From an uncultured Bacilli bacterium (GTDB lineage: Bacteria > Bacillota_I > Bacilli_A > RF39 > UBA660), in contig CAKOMK010000002.1 in NCBI GenBank assembly GCA_934096645.1, positions 55,383 through 119,382 of the forward strand: a stretch of 64,000 nt of DNA, written 5' to 3'. The position numbers were made by a program, and so were the translations under genes. This document shows, piece after piece, positions 29,198 through 39,449 of this stretch; the first letter of the stretch is position 1; the number at the start of each line of letters is the position of its first letter. Under the pieces are notes generated by a model. That model saw only the letters and a program-made list of their open reading frames with translations, was not told the DNA's origin and did not search any database.

Positions 29198-29322
29198 ACA
29201 TGACAATTATATTATATTTTTTTTGATATTTATAGTCATTTTTACATAAGTTTACATAATATTAAAAAACTTATACTTTAATTTTGTATTTATTATTGAT
29301 AAAATAATGAAAGGTGATTTAT

Positions 29323-30522
29323 ATGGAACTACTTACGAATAAATTAAGGCCTACTCATCTTAAAGATGTTTTAGGTCAAGAACACTTAATTGGTAAAAAT
29401 AAAATATTAACTAATTTAGTAAAAGAAAAAAAGTTATTTAATATAATTTTATATGGTAAAAGTGGTATTGGTAAAACAACTATAGCACTTGCTTTGATGA
29501 ACGAATTTAATCAAAGATATAGAGTTCTTAACGCTACTATTAATTCAAAAAAAGATTTTGAAGTTGTTATTGAAGAAGCAAAGCTTTATAAAGGTATTAT
29601 ATTAATAGTGGATGAAATTCACAGAATGAATAAAGATAAACAGGATATACTACTCTCTTACATTGAAAGTGGTTTAATAACTTTAATAGGTCTTACAAAT
29701 TCTAATCCATATCATTCAATTAATCCTGCTATAAGAAGTAGATGTCAATTACTAGAATTACATTCACTTACAGAAAAAGATGTAGAAAAAGGTTTAAAAC
29801 GAGTAAAAGAAGTATTGCCAGATATAATAATGGACAATAAAACTATAAAGTATATAGCTACTCTATCAGATGGTGATATAAGATATGCTTATAATCTAGT
29901 AGAATTTACTTATTATGGTTACAATAAAGAAGTCACAATAGAAAATATAAAGGAAACAAATAACACACCATCATTCTTTACAGATAAAAATGAAGATGGT
30001 CACTATGATATGCTATCAGCATTTCAAAAAAGTATTAGAGGAAGTGACGTAGATGCAGCCCTTCACTATTTAGGAAGACTTATAGTTAGTGGAGATTATG
30101 ATTCAATTTATAGAAGAATGCTAGTAACTGCATACGAAGACATAGGTCTTGCAAATCCAAGTATTGGACCAAAAGTAGTTGCAGCTATAGAAGCAAGTGA
30201 AAGAATTGGTTATCCAGAATTAGTAAAACCATTAAGCGTTGCAATAATAGATATGGCACTAAGTCCAAAAAGCAATTCAGCAGATTCAGCAATAATGTCT
30301 GCTATAAATGATATAAATGCTGGAAATGTCGGAAGAATACCAGAACACATAAAAACAACTTCACCTAATTACAAATACCCACACAACTACCCTAATTATT
30401 GGGTAGACCAACAATATATGCCAGACAATTTAATTGGTAGAAAATACTATTCACCAAGAAATAACAAATATGAAACTGAAATGACAAAATTTAACAACTC
30501 AATAAAAAATTATAAGAAATAA
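29323..30522 (+). CDS. rarA: replication-associated recombination protein A (MgsA/RarA AAA+ ATPase)
   Basis: LRPTHLKDVLGQEHL, Walker A GKSGIGKTT, Walker B LIVDEIHR. ATG at 29323 with AAGGTGA RBS. Confidence 0.85.
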   Translation: MELLTNKLRPTHLKDVLGQEHLIGKNKILTNLVKEKKLFNIILYGKSGIGKTTIALALMNEFNQRYRVLNATINSKKDFEVVIEEAKLYKGIILIVDEIHRMNKDKQDILLSYIESGLITLIGLTNSNPYHSINPAIRSRCQLLELHSLTEKDVEKGLKRVKEVLPDIIMDNKTIKYIATLSDGDIRYAYNLVEFTYYGYNKEVTIENIKETNNTPSFFTDKNEDGHYDMLSAFQKSIRGSDVDAALHYLGRLIVSGDYDSIYRRMLVTAYEDIGLANPSIGPKVVAAIEASERIGYPELVKPLSVAIIDMALSPKSNSADSAIMSAINDINAGNVGRIPEHIKTTSPNYKYPHNYPNYWVDQQYMPDNLIGRKYYSPRNNKYETEMTKFNNSIKNYKK

Positions 30523-30540
30523 ATCTTATAATTTTTATTT
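30511..30540. terminator. bidirectional terminator shared by convergent rarA and hydrolase paralog A
   Basis: 11-bp perfect inverted repeat aaattataaga/tcttataattt flanked by A and T runs, spanning both stop codons; duplicated at 34708..34740. Confidence 0.5.
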
Positions 30541-32946
30541 TGTTATCTTATTAAATCCATCAAATTTAGAAATAAAATCATTATAACTAGAAGTATTAAA
30601 ATAGCTATCTTTAAATATAACTTTAACATATTGTCCTTCACACTTAATACTTTTTATCATATCAGAACTATATCCTTGAGTAATCTTATTTAAACTTGAT
30701 AATGCTTTATCAGGATTTCCAAAATCAAAGTAATGTTCAACGCTAGTAACTGAGTTATTATCATGATTAATTATTATTTTATAACTTGAGTCTAGTGAAC
30801 TATATACATCAGTATTATTATCACTTACTACACTACTATATTCAGGAAATTCAACTGTATCATTTGAAGGTGTTAATGTGCCTGAATCAATTATGTCAGG
30901 GTTTGATGGAGCACTTGGAGCACTAGGAGAATATCCACTATTTCCACTAGAACTTCCACTAGAAGTGTTACTTCCTGTATTACTATTTGAATTGCTTACA
31001 TTTCCAGTACCACCAGTATTACCATAATTATTTTGATTATTACTAGTATTAGTATCTGATGGTTTATTTTCATCTTTGGAGTCTTTTGGTCCTACTTCAG
31101 TTTTATCAGCATTTACTGTACTTGAAGCATTTGACTTATTTGAGTCATTATTACTTTGATTTGTAGAATTATCTCTTCTATCTTTATTATTGCCATTATT
31201 TAACTTAGTGTTTTCTTTAGCATTACTAGCTTTAACATCACTATTGCCTTTTTCTTCACTAGGTTTTTTCGCATCATCATACTTTATATTTTTATTTACT
31301 GTACTAGACATGTTAGCTTCATCTACTTTTTCTTGTTCATCTTTAACTTCATTGCCTTTTAAATCAGTTTCACTTACTTCAGTTTCAACATCAACATCAT
31401 ATTCATCTTTATTTTTTTCAAATTCATCAATTCTTCCTTTTATGTAGTCATCAATAAATTTATCTTTATCTTTTCCACTAAGGCCTTTACTTTCAGCTTC
31501 TTTGTTTGCTTCTTCGCCATAATATTTTTCAAAAAGCTTAGCAGTTTCTGAGTCAATATACTCTTGTTTTTTAGTACCAGTATATCCAAGAGCATCAGCA
31601 GCAGCTCCCAAACCAGCAATGGCTCCAGCAAGAACAGCATCAGTTGTGTTTCTTCCGCCGGCCAAGTCTTCAGCTCTATCTTTAATATTATCTTCAGTAG
31701 CTTCTATTTCAATTTGAGCATGCATAGCAAATTCAACGCATTCAAGAGTCTTAAACAATAATTCACTTGTCTTAGCAACATATTCCATAATTTTAACGTC
31801 TTGAATTTTAGGAGAATTTGTAGTACTTGCATAATCTACAGTAATTTTTAGATTTTTTATTCTAGTACCATTTATTTTGCTAGTTAAAGCTTGAATTTTC
31901 TCTGCTAAAAATCCAGCATCAGTAGTCAAGAATTCACTCATCATACCATTTATATTATCTAAAGATTCTCTCATATGCATGTTATAAGACTCATATTCTT
32001 TTTTATATTTCTCATACATGGCATCTATTTGTTCTGGAGTAAATGTTGGTATTTTTCCTTCAGAAATTAAATTTTGTCTCATAATTCTGATAGCTTCATT
32101 AACATCATCAAATGGAACAAAATTACCATTCTCATCAAATTTATAAAATCCTAAAGCAGAAGGTATTTCATCAGTTTGACCATTTAAAAATGCAAGTAAA
32201 TTATCTTGAAAAACAGTAGCAGGAGTTTCACCATGATCCCCAGGAATTTCAATAATGACTAAAGGAATACCAGCCGCAGCTATTTCTTTATAATGTTGTG
32301 AAGTTTTATATTGATCTGGTAAAGTCTCAACAGATTCAAATGCCATTATAACCGTACCATTTTCTTTCATTAAATTAAGGTTTTCTTCACTAGTATCTAA
32401 TTGACCTCCATTCCATTGAAGATCAAGAAAAACCATAGTTTGTGGTTCTAAATCAGGATTATTTCTAATCTTGTCAAGAGTTCTTGTATAAACAGTACCT
32501 CCACCTTCACTCCAACCAATACAAGTGTGTGAATTAAAAGCGTTCTCACCATAAATAGCTTCTATAGTACGCAACCCTAATTCATTTTTATCATCAGAAG
32601 AAGTCATACAAAAAATCGCATCGTTATTCTCATCTATAGCATTAGTAATAGCATTATCTACTACATAACTTCCAGAAGCACCTCTCGAAGTAATACCACA
32701 AGGATTATAATAAGTATAAGACTTAGTATTCTCATCTATTTTCGCAGGTAAATATATTTCAAACATATTACTATTTAAATCTGTAGTAGAAGTAATAACT
32801 ACTTTATCGCTGCCTTCAACAGGAGCAACGCTAATGCCAATTTCAGTTCCCTCATATTCTGCTATAATATCATTATATGCTCTTAACTGATCTTCTGTCA
32901 TAAAAGAAGTATCAACATTTTCATTTGTACTCATAAAATACCTCAC
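30535..32946 (-). CDS. modular protein, paralog A (803 aa): alpha/beta-hydrolase-like domain, conserved helical module, S/N/T/G linker, conserved C-terminal domain
   Basis: No signal peptide. Serine elbow IGWSEGG (S146) and His in PGDHGE. Helical module at aa ~335-545 (MSEFLTTDAGFLAEKIQALTSKINGT...AGAIAGLGAAADALGYTG). Low-complexity linker at aa ~545-680. C-domain at aa 680-803. GAGGT RBS. Confidence 0.75.
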   Translation of the reverse strand: MRYFMSTNENVDTSFMTEDQLRAYNDIIAEYEGTEIGISVAPVEGSDKVVITSTTDLNSNMFEIYLPAKIDENTKSYTYYNPCGITSRGASGSYVVDNAITNAIDENNDAIFCMTSSDDKNELGLRTIEAIYGENAFNSHTCIGWSEGGGTVYTRTLDKIRNNPDLEPQTMVFLDLQWNGGQLDTSEENLNLMKENGTVIMAFESVETLPDQYKTSQHYKEIAAAGIPLVIIEIPGDHGETPATVFQDNLLAFLNGQTDEIPSALGFYKFDENGNFVPFDDVNEAIRIMRQNLISEGKIPTFTPEQIDAMYEKYKKEYESYNMHMRESLDNINGMMSEFLTTDAGFLAEKIQALTSKINGTRIKNLKITVDYASTTNSPKIQDVKIMEYVAKTSELLFKTLECVEFAMHAQIEIEATEDNIKDRAEDLAGGRNTTDAVLAGAIAGLGAAADALGYTGTKKQEYIDSETAKLFEKYYGEEANKEAESKGLSGKDKDKFIDDYIKGRIDEFEKNKDEYDVDVETEVSETDLKGNEVKDEQEKVDEANMSSTVNKNIKYDDAKKPSEEKGNSDVKASNAKENTKLNNGNNKDRRDNSTNQSNNDSNKSNASSTVNADKTEVGPKDSKDENKPSDTNTSNNQNNYGNTGGTGNVSNSNSNTGSNTSSGSSSGNSGYSPSAPSAPSNPDIIDSGTLTPSNDTVEFPEYSSVVSDNNTDVYSSLDSSYKIIINHDNNSVTSVEHYFDFGNPDKALSSLNKITQGYSSDMIKSIKCEGQYVKVIFKDSYFNTSSYNDFISKFDGFNKITK

Positions 32947-33014
32947 TTATTCTAATAATAGGATACTACGTAATTAGTAAAAAGTAAATGAAATTTGATT
33001 TAGATGACAAAACA

Positions 33015-33045
33015 AAGACAATAAAAAAGATAGTAATTTTACTAT
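33015..33045 (-). terminator. terminator of hydrolase paralog B
   Basis: 9-bp stem agatagtaa/ttactatct followed by T6 on the minus strand. Confidence 0.5.
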
Positions 33046-33051
33046 CTTATG

Positions 33052-34647
33052 CTATTTACCACTAACTGATGTTTCTGTAACAGTAGTACTATCTACAGTA
33101 GCATTAACATCTGTATTACTCATAATTCTTTCATAATTATCTCTTACTGCATCTAAATAATCATCAACAAATTTATCAGCCTCAGTTCCAGTTAATCCCT
33201 TTTCATTAGCCGCATTACGAGCTTCTTCTCCATATAAGTTTTCATATGTTAAATCTGTTAATCTTTCGAGTTCTTTAGCTCTCTCAGCATCAGATAAAGA
33301 TGGATCTATAGTAAAAGGTAAACCTGCAAGAGCTCCAGTTAAAACACTAAAGTCACTAACCTCAGTTCCACCTAAATTAGCAGCTTCGTTATTTAAGTCT
33401 CTTTCTGTCTCTTGTAACTTTAATTGTGCATCCATAGCTTGTTTTGTAAAAGATAATACATTGTCAAGCATTTTTAAGGTATTAACTTTATATTCTAACA
33501 TTTTAATATCTTGAATTTTAGGTGAACTAGTTGTACTAGCATATTGATTTGCAATAACTAAATCTCTTATTTTTGTATTATTAATAACAGAAACAATTGA
33601 ATTAATTTTATCTGCTAAAAATCCAGCATCAGTACTTAAAAATTCTTCCATTATACCATTAATTGAAGAAATAGTAAGTTTAATATTCTTCCCAATAAAA
33701 ATTGATTGTCTAATATAATGGTTTGACATATGAGTAACATCAGCTAAATCAAAAATAATATCATTTCCAAACATAATCTCGCAAAAAGCCATTCTTTGTT
33801 CTTGTGGATCAGTAATTAATACTCTTTCACCATCTTTATCATATTTATAAAGTTTATAAGACATATTATAATCTTTACCACCATGCGTGATTTTACTAGG
33901 TAAACCAAGTATATCAAATGAACCATTGCTAAGACCCCATAATTCACTATCAGCATTTAAAGATCTAACAAATCCATGGGAATCTCTATTATCTTTCTCA
34001 GCAGTATATTCAATATAATAAACAGTTAAACCTTGCTTAGCAAATTCAGAAATATCACCTTGAGCCCTCTTGAAAACATCACCATCAAATACATCAGGAT
34101 TAGTATCAAAATACACAAGTGGTGTTTTTGTTTTTATTAAATTATTTATTTCCTCTTGAGTAAGTTTAACATTATTATATATATCTCTTGGTTCCATTAA
34201 AACAGGAATAAAATTATATCCTCTTTCTATACAATTAGCTGCTACAGAATGCATTGTATTTCCAAAACTAGCACTATATCCTTGATAAACAACAGTAGTA
34301 TCAGCTATACAGGGATTGCTGTCCTTAATACAATCAATAACATCTAAACCTTTTGTCATCCAGTCATCCGTATTGCCCAAATGTATAGGCGACAAAATAA
34401 TAGTATTGCTTTGATTATCAACTACATGATTAAACACTTCGTTGCAGTCATCAATTCCTCCTCCACCTCTACCAGCAATTTGGATACCTGTATCATAATC
34501 AATCTCTTCTGGCATATAAACACGAAACTCACTATCGCCATAACCAACTCTAACAGTTCCTTCAGTTCCAGGTTCAATTTGAGACAATTGGTTTTTAATA
34601 CTATCTATATCTTCTTGAGATAAATTACTCAAATCCATATTATGCAC
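33052..34647 (-). CDS. modular protein, paralog B (531 aa): divergent alpha/beta-hydrolase-like domain plus the conserved helical module only
   Basis: Serine elbow QGYSASFG and His in ITHGGKDY. Helical module IMEEFLSTDAGFLADKINS... at aa ~334-531. Ends right after the module with no linker or C-domain. Confidence 0.7.
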   Translation of the reverse strand: MHNMDLSNLSQEDIDSIKNQLSQIEPGTEGTVRVGYGDSEFRVYMPEEIDYDTGIQIAGRGGGGIDDCNEVFNHVVDNQSNTIILSPIHLGNTDDWMTKGLDVIDCIKDSNPCIADTTVVYQGYSASFGNTMHSVAANCIERGYNFIPVLMEPRDIYNNVKLTQEEINNLIKTKTPLVYFDTNPDVFDGDVFKRAQGDISEFAKQGLTVYYIEYTAEKDNRDSHGFVRSLNADSELWGLSNGSFDILGLPSKITHGGKDYNMSYKLYKYDKDGERVLITDPQEQRMAFCEIMFGNDIIFDLADVTHMSNHYIRQSIFIGKNIKLTISSINGIMEEFLSTDAGFLADKINSIVSVINNTKIRDLVIANQYASTTSSPKIQDIKMLEYKVNTLKMLDNVLSFTKQAMDAQLKLQETERDLNNEAANLGGTEVSDFSVLTGALAGLPFTIDPSLSDAERAKELERLTDLTYENLYGEEARNAANEKGLTGTEADKFVDDYLDAVRDNYERIMSNTDVNATVDSTTVTETSVSGK

Positions 34648-34666
34648 ATCCTATTCTTATATCAAA

Positions 34667-34694
34667 ATTATAACATGAAAACTTGATATGTAAA
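34667..34694 (-). promoter_or_regulatory. promoter of paralog B
   Basis: Minus-strand TTTACA, 16-nt spacer, extended -10 TGTTATAAT, about 20 nt upstream of the ATG. Confidence 0.45.
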
Positions 34695-34736
34695 ACTCCA
34701 AAATAAAAAAATTATAAGAAATAAATCTTATAATTT

Positions 34737-37205
34737 TTATTTTGTTATCTTATTAAATCCATCAAATTTAGAAATAAAGTCATGATAACTAGAAGTATTA
34801 AAGTAACTATCTTTAAATATAACTTTAACATATTGTCCTTCACACTTAATACTTTTTATCATATCAGAACTATATCCTTGAGTAATCTTATTTAAACTTG
34901 ATAATGCTTTATCAGGATTTCCAAAATCAAAGTAATGTTCAACGCTAGTAACTGAGTTATTATCATGATTAATTATTATTTTATAACTTGAGTCTAGTGA
35001 ACTATATACATCAGTATTATTATCACTTACTACACTACTATATTCAGGAAATTCAACTGTATCATTTGAAGGTGTTAATGTGCCTGAATCAATTATGTCA
35101 GGGTTTGATGGAGCACTTGGAGCACTAGGAGAATATCCACCATTTCCATATGAACTTCCACTACCAGAACCATTACTTCCTGCATTATTATTTGAATTGC
35201 TTACATTTCCAGTACCATTTGAATTCCAAGAATTATTTTGGTTATTACCACTATTTGTATTAGTTTCCTCCGTTTTATTGCTATCGTTAGAAGTACCATT
35301 ATCAGTTCTATCTGTACTTACTGTACTAGAAGCATTTGATTTATTAGAATTATTATTTTGATTTGTAGAACTATTAGAATTTTCTCCTCTATCTTTATTA
35401 TTGTGGCTATTTAACTTAGTTTCTTCTTTAGATTCACTAGGTTTAGTATCACTATTGCCCTTATTATCAGTACCAGGTTTCTTCGCATCATCATACTTTA
35501 TATTTTTATTTACTGTACTTGATACATTTGATTTATTTGAACTATTATCATTTTTATCTTTATTTACAACGCTAGACATATTTTCCATGTCTGCTTTTTC
35601 TTCTTTAGCTTTAACTTCATTACCTTTTAAATCAGTTTCACTTGCTTCAGTTTCAACATCAACGTCATATTTATCTTTATTTTTTTCAAATTCTTTAATT
35701 CTTTCTTTTATATAATCGTCAACAAATTTATCTTTTTCTTCCCCAGTAAGTCCTTTACTTTCAGCTTCTTTGCTTGCATCAGCTCCATAATACTTCTCAT
35801 AAAGTTTTGCAGTTTCAGCATCAATATACTCTTGTTTTTTAGTACCAGTATATCCAAGAGCATCAGCAATACTATCTAATCCTGCAATAGCACCAGCAAG
35901 AGCAGCATCAGTTACACCTCCACTAGGAGCCAAATCAGCTGCATCTTTATCAACTTCATTTTCTGTTGCTTCAATTTCCAATTGAGCATGCATAGCAAAC
36001 TCAACACATTCAAGAGTTTTTGCAAGCAATTCACTTGTCTTAGCAATATACTCCATAATTTTAACATCTTGCATCTTTGGAGAGTTTGTAGTACTAGCAT
36101 AATCAGTAGTAACTTTAATATCTTTTATTTTAGTACCATTTATCTTACTAGTTAGTGCTTGAATTTTATCTGCTAAAAATCCAGCGTCAGTTGATAAGAA
36201 TTCACTTAACATCTTATTTATTCTTTCTTGAGATAATTTGATATTTAAATTATATAAAGCATTATCATCTTTTAGCTTATTATATAACTGATCAATATCA
36301 CTTAATTCAAACATAGGCGTTTTAACCATGTCATCAAAGTATTTTGTAGCTTCTTCATAAGATAAATCTTTTTTCTTCCATTCACCAGTCTCAGGATCTT
36401 CTACAAAAATATAAAAATGGTTAAGTTTATCTTTAAAATCTTCTGTCAAATCACCTTTTCCAAGAATCCAATTCAAATAATTGTTATAGTATGGAGTTTT
36501 ACATTTCCCATCATGACTAACAGCATAATCTATATAAAATGTTTCACCACCTAATGAAGCCCAATGTCTAAATACTCTAACAGCATCAGGATTTCCATTA
36601 CTACCATCAGATGTAACTCCAACTAATTTCATGCCTTTATTAATCATAGCTAAATAATCATCATCAGAATTCGGTATATAATACATGCTTCTTTCTGGAT
36701 GATAACTATCTCCAAGAGATAAAGTAGAAATATGATATTTATATGTTCCATCTTCGGCTACACTATAATTTCTAGCAAGAGCAAAAGCAGAACCTCCACC
36801 AGCACTAACTCCAGCAACAGTTACATTATCCCAGTCACCAGGTATTATATCAGATAAACTATTTAATGTGTTTGCTGCCTCTTTTCCACTATAATAATAA
36901 GAACCCCCTGGAAATATTAAAATAGTATTATTATTACAGTTTAATTCATTAAGACTCACACAGTTTCTACTAGAATAATCATCGTCCATTCCCTTATAAT
37001 AAACAACAATTTGAGTATTCTCATCTATATGATCAGGCATATAAATTTGAGCACCAACTTCACTATCCCCAGTAGGTGTATATTCTCCAACATTCCAACT
37101 TATAGATCCAGAATCATTATAAGTTTTATGTTCAGTTTCTATACCATTTATATTATTAGTACGTGTAAAATCAGCACTATCTTGATATCCTGTATTATTA
37201 TTCAT
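34737..37205 (-). CDS. modular protein, paralog C (822 aa): alpha/beta-hydrolase-like domain, conserved helical module, S/N/T/G linker, C-terminal domain near-identical to paralog A
   Basis: No signal peptide. Serine elbow AGVSAGGG (S134) and His in VSHDGK. Helical module from aa ~334 (MLSEFLSTDAGFLADKIQALTSKINGT). The last ~133 aa are almost identical to paralog A at both protein and DNA level. AGAGGTG RBS. Confidence 0.75.
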   Translation of the reverse strand: MNNNTGYQDSADFTRTNNINGIETEHKTYNDSGSISWNVGEYTPTGDSEVGAQIYMPDHIDENTQIVVYYKGMDDDYSSRNCVSLNELNCNNNTILIFPGGSYYYSGKEAANTLNSLSDIIPGDWDNVTVAGVSAGGGSAFALARNYSVAEDGTYKYHISTLSLGDSYHPERSMYYIPNSDDDYLAMINKGMKLVGVTSDGSNGNPDAVRVFRHWASLGGETFYIDYAVSHDGKCKTPYYNNYLNWILGKGDLTEDFKDKLNHFYIFVEDPETGEWKKKDLSYEEATKYFDDMVKTPMFELSDIDQLYNKLKDDNALYNLNIKLSQERINKMLSEFLSTDAGFLADKIQALTSKINGTKIKDIKVTTDYASTTNSPKMQDVKIMEYIAKTSELLAKTLECVEFAMHAQLEIEATENEVDKDAADLAPSGGVTDAALAGAIAGLDSIADALGYTGTKKQEYIDAETAKLYEKYYGADASKEAESKGLTGEEKDKFVDDYIKERIKEFEKNKDKYDVDVETEASETDLKGNEVKAKEEKADMENMSSVVNKDKNDNSSNKSNVSSTVNKNIKYDDAKKPGTDNKGNSDTKPSESKEETKLNSHNNKDRGENSNSSTNQNNNSNKSNASSTVSTDRTDNGTSNDSNKTEETNTNSGNNQNNSWNSNGTGNVSNSNNNAGSNGSGSGSSYGNGGYSPSAPSAPSNPDIIDSGTLTPSNDTVEFPEYSSVVSDNNTDVYSSLDSSYKIIINHDNNSVTSVEHYFDFGNPDKALSSLNKITQGYSSDMIKSIKCEGQYVKVIFKDSYFNTSSYHDFISKFDGFNKITK

Positions 37206-37227
37206 AAAACACCTCTATTATTAATCA

Positions 37228-37262
37228 ATTATAACACACATAAAAAGACAAGAAAATAAAAA
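37228..37262 (-). promoter_or_regulatory. promoter of paralog C
   Basis: Extended -10 TGTTATAAT on the minus strand about 20 nt upstream of the ATG; the -35 region overlaps the T-run of the tcdA terminator. Confidence 0.4.
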
Positions 37263-37291
37263 GACATAAAATTTGCTATAAAATTATGTCT
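37240..37291 (-). terminator. terminator of the ThiF-family gene
   Basis: Stem agacataa/ttatgtct overlapping the stop codon, followed by TTTTTATTTTCTTGTCTTTTT on the minus strand. Confidence 0.5.
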
Positions 37292-37967
37292 ATTTTTTAA
37301 TTACATCATTAATAATATAATTTGTAATAAATAATCCAGCAGTTGCAGGAACAAAAGATGTAGAACCAAGCATTTTAGTATTAATAGGTTTTTCATCACT
37401 TGTTACAACTGTAACATCTTTCATTAAAACTCTATCTTTTCCTAAATCATGTCTTATCTTTTTAGCAAGTGGATCAGTTTCTGTTTTATCAAGAGTAGTA
37501 ATTCTAACACGAGTAGCATCTATTTTATTTGCTGTTCCCATACTAGAAACTAATTTAATTCCTTTATCATGACATTCTCTAATTAATTTAACTTTAACTT
37601 TTGTAGTATCACAAGCATCAATAATATAATCATATTTATATGTAAATAAACATTCTATATTATCTTCTGTTATATGAGTATTTATAATACTAACATTAGC
37701 ATCTTTATTAATTAGTTTGATACGTTTTTTCCATTCTCTTGTCTTATATTTATTATTATTTCTAGATGTAGCAATTATTTGTCTATTAATATTACTTGGT
37801 TTAATAGTATCACTATCTACTAGTGTAATATTTCCAACACCACATCTAATCAAAGACTCTATAACGTATCCTCCAACACCTCCAAGACCAATTATTAATA
37901 CATTTAATTTCTTAATCTTTTCAATGTTTTCTTCTCCGATTAGACTCTCAAGTCTACACAAATTCAT
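37290..37967 (-). CDS. tcdA: ThiF/MoeB-family protein, likely tRNA threonylcarbamoyladenosine dehydratase (TcdA/CsdL)
   Basis: Nucleotide-binding LIIGLGGVGGYVIESL and the SD...NRQ motif; 225 aa. Confidence 0.6.
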   Translation of the reverse strand: MNLCRLESLIGEENIEKIKKLNVLIIGLGGVGGYVIESLIRCGVGNITLVDSDTIKPSNINRQIIATSRNNNKYKTREWKKRIKLINKDANVSIINTHITEDNIECLFTYKYDYIIDACDTTKVKVKLIRECHDKGIKLVSSMGTANKIDATRVRITTLDKTETDPLAKKIRHDLGKDRVLMKDVTVVTSDEKPINTKMLGSTSFVPATAGLFITNYIINDVIKK

Positions 37968-37993
37968 ACTTTTTGCCTCCTAAAAGCACGAAT

Positions 37994-38002
37994 ATTATAG
38001 CA
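37994..38002 (-). promoter_or_regulatory. extended -10 (TGCTATAAT) of the tcdA promoter
   Basis: Minus-strand TGCTATAAT about 25 nt upstream of the AGGAGG RBS. Confidence 0.4.
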
Positions 38003-39289: not shown

Positions 39290-39418
39290 ACCTTAAAAAG
39301 AAAAAATACCTAAGATAACCTTAAGTATTAAAAGCTATCCTCATCCATCTGGGTTTACCACCTAATCAAATAGGTTGGTGTGATCTACGAGCCAGTCTCT
39401 AAATCACTCTTTATAAGG
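39290..39418 (-). promoter_or_regulatory. SAM-I (S-box) riboswitch with terminator in the metK leader
   Basis: Minus-strand read CTTATAAAGAGTGATTTAGAGACTGGCTCGTAGATCACACCAACC...GGTGGTAAACCCAGATGGATGAGGATAG. It matches the S-box core (AGAGnnnnAGnGACTGGC, CAACC, GGTGnnAAnnCC, AGATGAG). A hairpin plus TATTTTTTCTTTTT follows. Confidence 0.6.
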
Positions 39419-39449
39419 TAATATAAAATTGTTGTCCTAAGACATAAAT

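Follow-up and report, generated by a model that had tools for sequence, protein, structure and literature searches.

The question raised by this locus is why two genes of one tandem array, whose 5' ends have drifted to about 45% DNA identity, should finish in almost the same sequence. The window (the whole 64-kb stretch of DNA from an uncultured Bacilli bacterium that we analysed, whose positions serve as coordinates throughout) carries three tandem minus-strand paralogs, A, B and C, set among housekeeping genes between rarA, which lies on the plus strand and is convergent with A, and a tcdA/thiF-like gene on the minus strand. A and C each encode a head, a helical module, a linker and a C-terminal domain (CTD), and it is over the CTD and the hairpin beyond it that their DNA is nearly identical. 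From sequence comparison we consider it likely, at a probability of about 85%, that this 435-bp segment was left by gene conversion, a recent homologous recombination event without reciprocity in which the 3' end of A was copied over the 3' end of C.

A first-pass annotation of the window had described about 450 bp of near-identical DNA at the 3' ends of A and C. This held up as a gapless match of 435 bp with 4 mismatches (30504-30938 against 34706-35140), containing a perfect run of 334 bp (30605-30938, equal to 34807-35140), although its 5' limit had been placed about 20 bp too far out, at ~30960/35160; the real edge is 30938/35140, and from there to ~30960/35160 there are several mismatches and a 3-nt indel. 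The two copies lie 4.2 kb apart in direct orientation. A repeat search recovered 30504-30803 against 34706-35005 at 99%, and a global alignment of A with C, as the annotation had proposed, gave 48-50 identical bases per 50 between 30547 and ~30946. Near-identity is limited to the last ~435 bp, beyond which similarity decays to ~80-88% through the linker and helical module (to ~31966/36234) and to ~45% in the heads. The helical modules, which the annotation had singled out as similar and as further substrates for recombination, share exact runs of up to 48 nt, and islands of exact match in this part of the alignment do coincide with a conversion endpoint, as described below.

The evidence that carries our reading comes from other strains. 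A protein search with C returned 20 clusters among 5.8 billion proteins, nearly all of them from human-gut metagenome assemblies in ENA, and the contigs behind these clusters provided ten loci (L001-L003, L005-L009, L016 and L017) whose flanks are 96.7-99.6% identical to the window, so that they belong to one species with it. The gene order metK-tcdA-C-B-A-rarA-xerC/D-like is the same in 10/10 loci, and none of the strain loci has further genes within the stretch from tcdA to rarA, where the intergenic gaps measure ~85-105 bp. According to the first-pass annotation, a fixed arrangement with no sign of exchange would have spoken against recombination; the arrangement is indeed fixed, but tail sequences have been exchanged, and tract length varies by strain. 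The perfect A=C tract measures 334 bp in the window and 805 bp in L001, where it reaches into the linker, and is split into two separate ~200-bp patches in L016. No such tract exists in L002, L003, L006-L009 or L017, where the longest exact run is 32-96 nt. In these unconverted genomes A and C are 86-90% identical over the last 400 nt of coding sequence, and tails cluster according to their place in the array, the C tails with one another (94-97%) and the A tails with one another. The window C tail, in contrast, is 99.0% identical to its own A tail and 88-89.5% identical to orthologous C tails, while the C and A tails of L001 are 100% identical. The contrast is sharpest with L002, whose flanks are 99.3% identical to the window, yet whose A and C tails are only ~90% identical and differ at many synonymous positions. 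Over the last ~100 nt and the terminator, A and C match at 96-100% in every strain.

This division is supported by a Sawyer-type permutation test over 370 polymorphic sites, in which the window, L001 and L016 gave p<=1e-4, L002 and L003 p~0.01, L017 p=0.24 and L006 p=0.57. Painting of ~50 full-length C-type proteins, taken from the cluster listings, resolved at least five mosaic classes; about two thirds of the C variants either are unconverted or resemble A at no more than the final one or two diagnostic residues. The L016 haplotype is present on 10 contigs, and a single assembly series, MERR22, yielded both unconverted (L005-L007) and converted (L016) loci. The earlier proposal that exchange homogenises only the C-terminal domain therefore does not hold, since the L001 tract runs 805 bp into the linker, the L016 tract is patchy and most C variants are unconverted.

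The direction of transfer was read from a painting based on 277 fixed A/C differences and a table of variable sites. The window C copy keeps C-type sites as far as 35141 and has A-type ones from 35109 down to 34779 at least, and a 9-bp insertion that marks C-type tails, CCAAGCACA, is missing from it between these two positions. Because the A copies are A-type throughout, the A-type tail of C indicates copying from A to C. L001_C carries four alleles that are private to L001_A (at 30944, 30927, 30790 and 30736), which marks its conversion as a recent event specific to the L001 lineage. L016_C is a mosaic, one boundary of which (between 31312 and 31270) it has in common with L001_C and another (between 30939 and 30907) with the window C; the former falls at a 38-nt island of A/C identity (31268-31305) that coincides with the 5' conversion endpoint of both L001 and L016. 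We count at least two independent A-to-C events, and probably three. L002_A contains a 5-bp C-type patch (CGGA..A) at 30664-30668 in window A coordinates, which reads as a short C-to-A conversion, so that exchange is not strictly one-way. Three hallmarks of gene conversion are present: paralogs within a genome closer than orthologs, an overlong tract with sharp edges, and non-reciprocal transfer with donor-private alleles (in L001). Taken together, the comparisons indicate that conversion in this species is recurrent, recent and mainly A-to-C, with tract lengths that differ by strain. Both elements of the original suggestion are borne out: a recent A-to-C conversion, by distinct C-type tails that persist in same-species strains while the window C tail is A-type, and recent or ongoing exchange, by tracts of different length in different strains.

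Several observations weigh against this reading, or against a more exact version of it. The window tract contains no alleles private to the window A copy, that is, it matches the ancestral A state, so its age relative to strain divergence is not fixed. The boundaries that L016_C shares with L001_C and with the window mean that some haplotypes may be related by descent or by recombination between strains, and the count of independent events is correspondingly uncertain. The four mismatches (A coordinates 30577, 30582, 30601 and 30604) are bunched in the last 70 nt of the gene, three of them being private to the window A, a cluster for which the proposed conversion does not account. Finally, the comparison loci, and probably the window too, are short-read metagenome assemblies, in which mis-threading of paralogs or bubble collapse is possible, especially for the ~200-bp patches of L016. 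As an observation in its own right, the three substitutions private to the window A copy fall within 28 bp (30577-30604) at the extreme 3' end of the gene and occur in no other A or C copy of any strain; a micro-import or a mutation cluster is possible.

One argument offered earlier for A-to-C copying needs to be separated from those above. As the annotation had it, the 11-bp inverted repeat aaattataaga/tcttataattt occurs in both copies (30507-30534 and 34709-34736), where it abuts the stop codons of A and C, and the copy beside A also encodes the last codons of rarA: the protein ends ...NSIKNYKK, its last ~6 codons lie within the repeat, the stop TAA (30520-30522) lies inside the hairpin loop, and the A stop codon (30535-30537) abuts the stem. 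The hairpins have AT-rich stems of 11-13 bp followed by a T6-7 run right after the stop codon, with folding energies of -10.1 to -14.6 kcal/mol and z of -3.2 to -5.6, as expected of predicted intrinsic terminators; a consensus terminator scan, which demands 3 G-C pairs, gave no match to these AT-rich hairpins. The stretch beyond C does preserve the 3' end of rarA, over 19 nt without a gap (34706-34724) or 21 nt with a 1-nt difference in an A-run (34703-34724, one extra A). From this fossil the annotation had concluded that A was copied towards C, and the conclusion stands for an old duplication. It fails for the recent event, since the hairpin and T-tract next to C are present in every strain, converted or unconverted, and so can neither date nor orient it; we dropped the fossil as a marker of recent conversion. 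In a sister species (metagenome-assembled genome (MAG) CAZBAZ01, 'uncultured Clostridium sp.', locus L012), a B-type gene adjoins rarA without any A-type tail, and rarA likewise ends ...NSIKNYKK with the same hairpin at its stop. The hairpin is therefore native to the rarA end, and the copy next to C is a scar left when an A-like 3' end was first duplicated to give the A/C pair.

A similar pattern would be expected if the true C tail were diverged and an assembler had threaded or collapsed the A-tail path into C through k-mers shared at the terminator and in the linker. The sources are indeed short-read metagenome assemblies, the conversion boundaries sit at exact-match islands, as graph artefacts would also give, and repeats of this family do disturb assembly, as seen from sister-species members stranded on 1.7-5.8 kb contigs and from orphan CTD-only fragments on tiny contigs (P0069, of 617 bp and with 7 member sequences, is probably what remains of a repeat that collapsed in short-read assemblies of the window's species). 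The tracts of the window (334-435 bp) and of L001 (805 bp), however, cross indels of at least 9 bp and tens of substitutions relative to C-type sequence, and tracts spanning such differences exceed the limits at which assemblers typically collapse bubbles. Unconverted tails came out of the same pipeline in other samples, 4 differences remain between A and C in the window, the L016 mosaic was assembled on 10 contigs, and both NCBI and ENA have the chimeric C protein of the window, which is recorded on 2 contigs. A direct repeat of two copies separated by unique sequence also corresponds to a single consistent path in an assembly graph. We regard an artefact as improbable. Barely credible, to our minds, is a history with no recent exchange at all, in which A and C arose by a young duplication or purifying selection froze the CTD DNA while the rest diverged. 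Conservation of the CTD at the protein level (ratio of nonsynonymous to synonymous substitution rates (dN/dS) 0.12-0.18), and the 96-100% A/C identity of the last ~100 nt and terminator in every strain, would fit such a history, but selection on protein cannot erase synonymous differences over 334 bp, the ~45% DNA identity of the heads points to an old duplication, and unconverted C tails form an orthologous group of their own. The many synonymous differences between the ~90% identical tails of L002, at 99.3% flank identity, speak to the same effect, and the unconverted strains already refute this explanation, unless they are themselves misassembled.

Recent gene conversion could also be the product of a dedicated system that shuffles heads and tails of a surface or secreted protein at high frequency, in the manner of pilE/pilS or vlsE, and the earlier comparison of the locus with cassette families leans in this direction. 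Modules do get swapped, as is evident from one strain lineage in which the head has been replaced: in L003 (8370-10888), L004 and P0011, the gene found in the place of A bears no relation to A over its first ~970 nt (~40% identity) but is 85-100% identical to A thereafter, and its upstream region resembles the promoter region of B. The head, D, has 50-80% DNA identity to the resident B and 82% protein identity to a head that follows B in another species (L014, CAVIDW01), and is a fourth, B-related head type set on an A body at the head/helical junction. Such a head, together with the several C mosaic classes and the tail modules that differ by species (CTD or LysM), is what programmed switching would predict. 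At only 50-80% identity to the resident B, though, the D head is an old module and not a product of shuffling within the locus, and the locus holds no silent, promoterless or truncated cassettes. It comprises three full-length genes with their own intergenic regions and terminators, a strong promoter match being found only for B, in a gene order fixed in 10/10 loci; every module is under purifying selection, and about two thirds of C variants are unconverted. The likeness to cassette families accordingly stands for the single head replacement and fails on the completeness of the genes, the purifying selection and the lack of silent cassettes, and a programmed switch seems to us very improbable, more so than a misassembly.

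Our preferred account, gene conversion by ordinary recombination, runs as follows. The ancestral state was a pair of related but distinct A and C tails (86-90% identical), such as survive in many strains of the species. In the window lineage, A-type sequence replaced the C tail from codons just upstream of the CTD to a point at or near the stop codon and terminator, and the same kind of event took place more than once in the species with different 5' endpoints, leaving tracts of 334-435 bp in the window, 805 bp in L001 and patches in L016. RecA-type recombination, starting or resolving in shared sequence, is the presumed agent. On the 3' side it would stop where homology runs out, about 38 nt beyond the stop codon, and on the 5' side at identity islands beside indels in the linker. 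Because the proteins come to match in the CTD alone, they should change little, and the events are probably neutral or nearly so.

The features of the locus are listed below. A, B and C are all full-length open reading frames (ORFs), each of which has an intergenic region and a hairpin terminator of its own, and the form of B, without linker or CTD, is the same in all strains and in the sister species. P0008-P0019 are orthologs of A, and the C protein, recorded from NCBI and ENA on 2 contigs, is identical to P0055; it is listed among the protein clusters, while a search for the exact protein by contig gave no match. The promoter-like site of B is conserved in other strains, and a promoter scan of the region gave a strong match for B alone among the three genes. 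Three further observations concern the surroundings. The paralog locus (30000-38000) has ~30% G+C, against ~24% in the surrounding genome. A SAM (S-box) riboswitch lies upstream of metK at 39338-39419 on the minus strand (Rfam RF00162, 45.5 bits, barely over the gathering score). In L002 (12360-13526), a phosphopentomutase-like (Metalloenzyme) gene downstream of xerC/D is split into ORFs of 203 aa and 135 aa, either a frameshift/pseudogene or an assembly error.

Table. Coordinates of genes, repeat copies and signals at the paralog locus (window positions)
Feature	Position	Strand	Description
rarA (mgsA), recombination-factor gene	29314..30522	+	Pfam MgsA_C 1e-48 and AAA domains; NCBIfam
Repeat copy 1, probable donor	30504..30938		In A and the rarA end
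Predicted bidirectional AT-rich hairpin terminator of rarA and A	30507..30534		-10.1 and -10.9 kcal/mol, z -4.3 and -3.2
Paralog A	30535..32946	-	803 aa; A-type Ser/His hydrolase-like head (predicted), helical module, N/S-rich linker, ~110-aa CTD; from ORF and translation
A-side linker and helical-module DNA	30939..31966		Identity of ~80-88% with C 35141-36234, including exact runs as long as 48 nt
Separate hairpin and T-tract downstream of B (AAGATAGTAAAATTACTATCTT)	33015..33051	-	-11.1 kcal/mol, z -3.0
Paralog B	33052..34647	-	531 aa; B-type head and helical module only, without linker or CTD
Promoter-like site for B	34667..34694	-	TTTACA-16 nt-TATAAT with TG, 11/12 matches; best promoter-like match in the region; directly after the C terminator and rarA fossil
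Hairpin copy downstream of C	34703..34736		-14.6 kcal/mol, z -5.6; carries fossil of last rarA codons and stop
Repeat copy 2, probable converted tract	34706..35140		In C and its downstream hairpin
Paralog C	34737..37205	-	822 aa; C-type head, helical module, C-type linker, A-type CTD
C-side linker and helical-module DNA	35141..36234		Unconverted in the window; partly converted in L001 and L016
tcdA/thiF-like gene	37290..37967	-	Flanks C

What the proteins do can be judged from their modules only in outline. Neither A, B and C nor their separate domains have a significant family in Pfam, NCBIfam, PHROGs or PADLOC, and inspection revealed no N-terminal signal peptide and no strongly hydrophobic segment in any of the three. 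All three heads share an invariant G-x-S-x-G motif and a downstream His (Ser134 and His231 in C). A profile search of 1.84 billion representatives returned 81 remote relatives, in which the Ser and His, compared in 66 distant relatives, are >90% conserved and a few of which weakly match alpha/beta-hydrolase families (Peptidase_S9, 7e-5; Esterase, 4e-4); the window heads themselves have no Pfam match. Predicted secondary structure alternates beta and alpha in the head, with long helices at residues 300-512. Sequence and profile searches of PDB gave nothing below E=0.1 for the head with helical module or for the CTD, the best esterase match being at E=1.5. An AlphaFold2 model of head and helical module, from a 5-sequence alignment, was too poor for a fold search (predicted local distance difference test score (pLDDT) 44.5). 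The CTD model was fair (pLDDT 76.9), and Foldseek found no match to it with E<0.01 in PDB and BFVD; resemblances to kinase N-lobes and to the type III secretion chaperones InvB/SycH (TM ~0.45) were non-significant and were rejected.

The tail of these proteins varies across relatives. A search with the CTD alone found only a fragment of the same family, and P0088, from the head profile search, combines head, helical module, linker and a CTD that is 31% identical in an essentially gapless alignment. P0076, P0080 and P0086 have head, helical module, a low-complexity region and a C-terminal hydrophobic anchor, P0090 joins the head to a phage-tail lysozyme, and another relative places TPR before the head. 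In the sister species, tails are LysM and never CTD: the ortholog P0006 has LysM at the position equivalent to the CTD (E=1.1e-15), whereas the window CTD has no Pfam match, so that LysM is an alternative tail in the sister species and not the tail of the window proteins. On these sequence grounds the proteins are probably cell-envelope-directed Ser/His hydrolases with an exchangeable C-terminal module, be it the CTD here, LysM in sister species, or a lysozyme domain or membrane anchor in distant relatives. Sister-species loci (L011-L013 and L015, of MAG CAZBAZ01, and L014, of CAVIDW01) hold larger family arrays, with two C-type genes, A-like genes and B, all on the short contigs mentioned above and consistent with fragmentation of assemblies by repeats. 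At the P0088 locus (L018; Logan SRR33718306, 2-4706), a partial gene with a glucosaminidase domain (E=6e-5) precedes P0088, which is followed after a 5-nt gap by a gene for a 177-aa protein, helical by eye and without a Pfam match, and beyond this by DUF3792 and DUF421 genes, which resemble genes in the vicinity of the window locus. A genome scan of GTDB returned only two other uncultured genomes with the family and not the window's own species, and tblastn of B against annotated plasmids and phages gave no match.

Comparison with a ~3%-diverged strain gave dN/dS values of 0.05-0.18 for every module, which indicates that the genes are functional and under purifying selection. Against the closest strain, L002, the heads of A and C show dN/dS of 0.75-1.03, resting on few changes, compared with 0.08-0.16 when the heads are set against the ~3%-diverged strain; the cause may be polymorphism that is still segregating, or recombination, and not positive selection.

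The process described here is a known and ordinary one, the gene family is uncharacterised, and no new mechanism is established. The locus nevertheless shows with unusual clarity how gene conversion between tandem paralogs recurs, and differs by strain, in an uncultured human-gut bacterium, and public metagenomes suffice to read off donor, recipient, endpoints and the ancestral state before conversion. For pangenomic work on MAGs, it illustrates that intragenomic identities of 330-800 bp come and go between >99%-identical strains, that they fragment assemblies, and that they can mimic or hide allelic variation. It also delineates a narrow, unannotated family, of about 20 clusters among 5.8 billion proteins and ~80 remote relatives, which its modular build and its exchangeable, probably envelope-directed tails recommend as a candidate for functional study.

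Polymorphic toxin systems (Rhs, contact-dependent inhibition, LXG) use a constant region as the recombination substrate for swapping variable modules. The present family likewise joins a conserved body to alternative variable domains, with a head swap at the conserved head/helical junction in L003, but its polarity is reversed, the N-terminus being variable and the C-terminus constant, and no immunity genes, orphan cassettes or recognised toxin domain occur at the locus. Reverse polarity is also found in TslA/Tsl1, the 'reverse' lipase toxins that Staphylococcus and other Bacillota secrete by a type VII route (PMC10730906; TslM, PMC13560087). As in TslA, there is no signal peptide, a variable N-terminal domain, here a putative hydrolase, precedes a predicted helical domain, and a genome carries several paralogs. 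Unlike the four-gene TslA cassette, which has an immunity lipoprotein (DUF576) and two small helical partner genes, the locus has neither, and A and C add a linker and CTD after the helical module. Nor was an LXG/WXG signal found at meaningful E-values: the window helical module has no Pfam match to LXG or WXG100 at E<=10, the 177-aa neighbour of P0088 and the helical modules gave no LXG or WXG match better than E=0.64 (LXG in a distant relative, at noise level), and the 10-kb flanks of related loci contain no annotated gene related to a type VII secretion system. One remote relative matches WXG100 at E=1.6e-4. We think it unlikely, on this evidence, that A, B and C represent an undescribed 'reverse-polarity' modular effector family of gut Clostridia, with signal-peptide-less Ser/His hydrolase heads of at least four types (A, B, C and D), a conserved helical body and exchangeable envelope-targeting tails (CTD, LysM, lysozyme, membrane anchor), exported by a non-Sec route (type VII-like as for TslA, or sporulation-associated) and diversified by recombination at the head/helical and linker/tail junctions. 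If it were so, the conversion tract would be one visible product of module shuffling with ecological consequences.

The closest documented parallels are the bab paralogs of H. pylori and repeat gene pairs of M. tuberculosis (PMC4552749, PMC1762029, PMC12046097). Intragenomic gene conversion among babA, babB and babC gives chimeric bab genes and, as here, joins divergent functional regions to highly similar 3' regions by non-reciprocal intragenomic recombination, the chimeras being polymorphic among strains of one species (PMC4552749). Unlike our genes, the bab loci are dispersed, and their conversion alters expression and phase variation and is adaptive in adhesion (PMC4552749), whereas our genes lie side by side, it is their constant tail that is exchanged, and the exchange has no evident consequence for regulation. 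Concerted evolution and gene conversion have also been described for duplicated bacterial genes such as PE_PGRS pairs and other repeat loci of M. tuberculosis (PMC1762029, PMC12046097, PMC13061034) and surveyed across prokaryotes (PMC6053082). The likeness extends to paralogs that are closer than orthologs and to sharply bounded tracts of hundreds of bp that are detectable only by comparing strains, although the present host is a very AT-rich uncultured gut Firmicute and the gene family is a different one. Compared with concerted evolution, homogenisation at this locus is sporadic and partial, and most strains keep their diverged tails.

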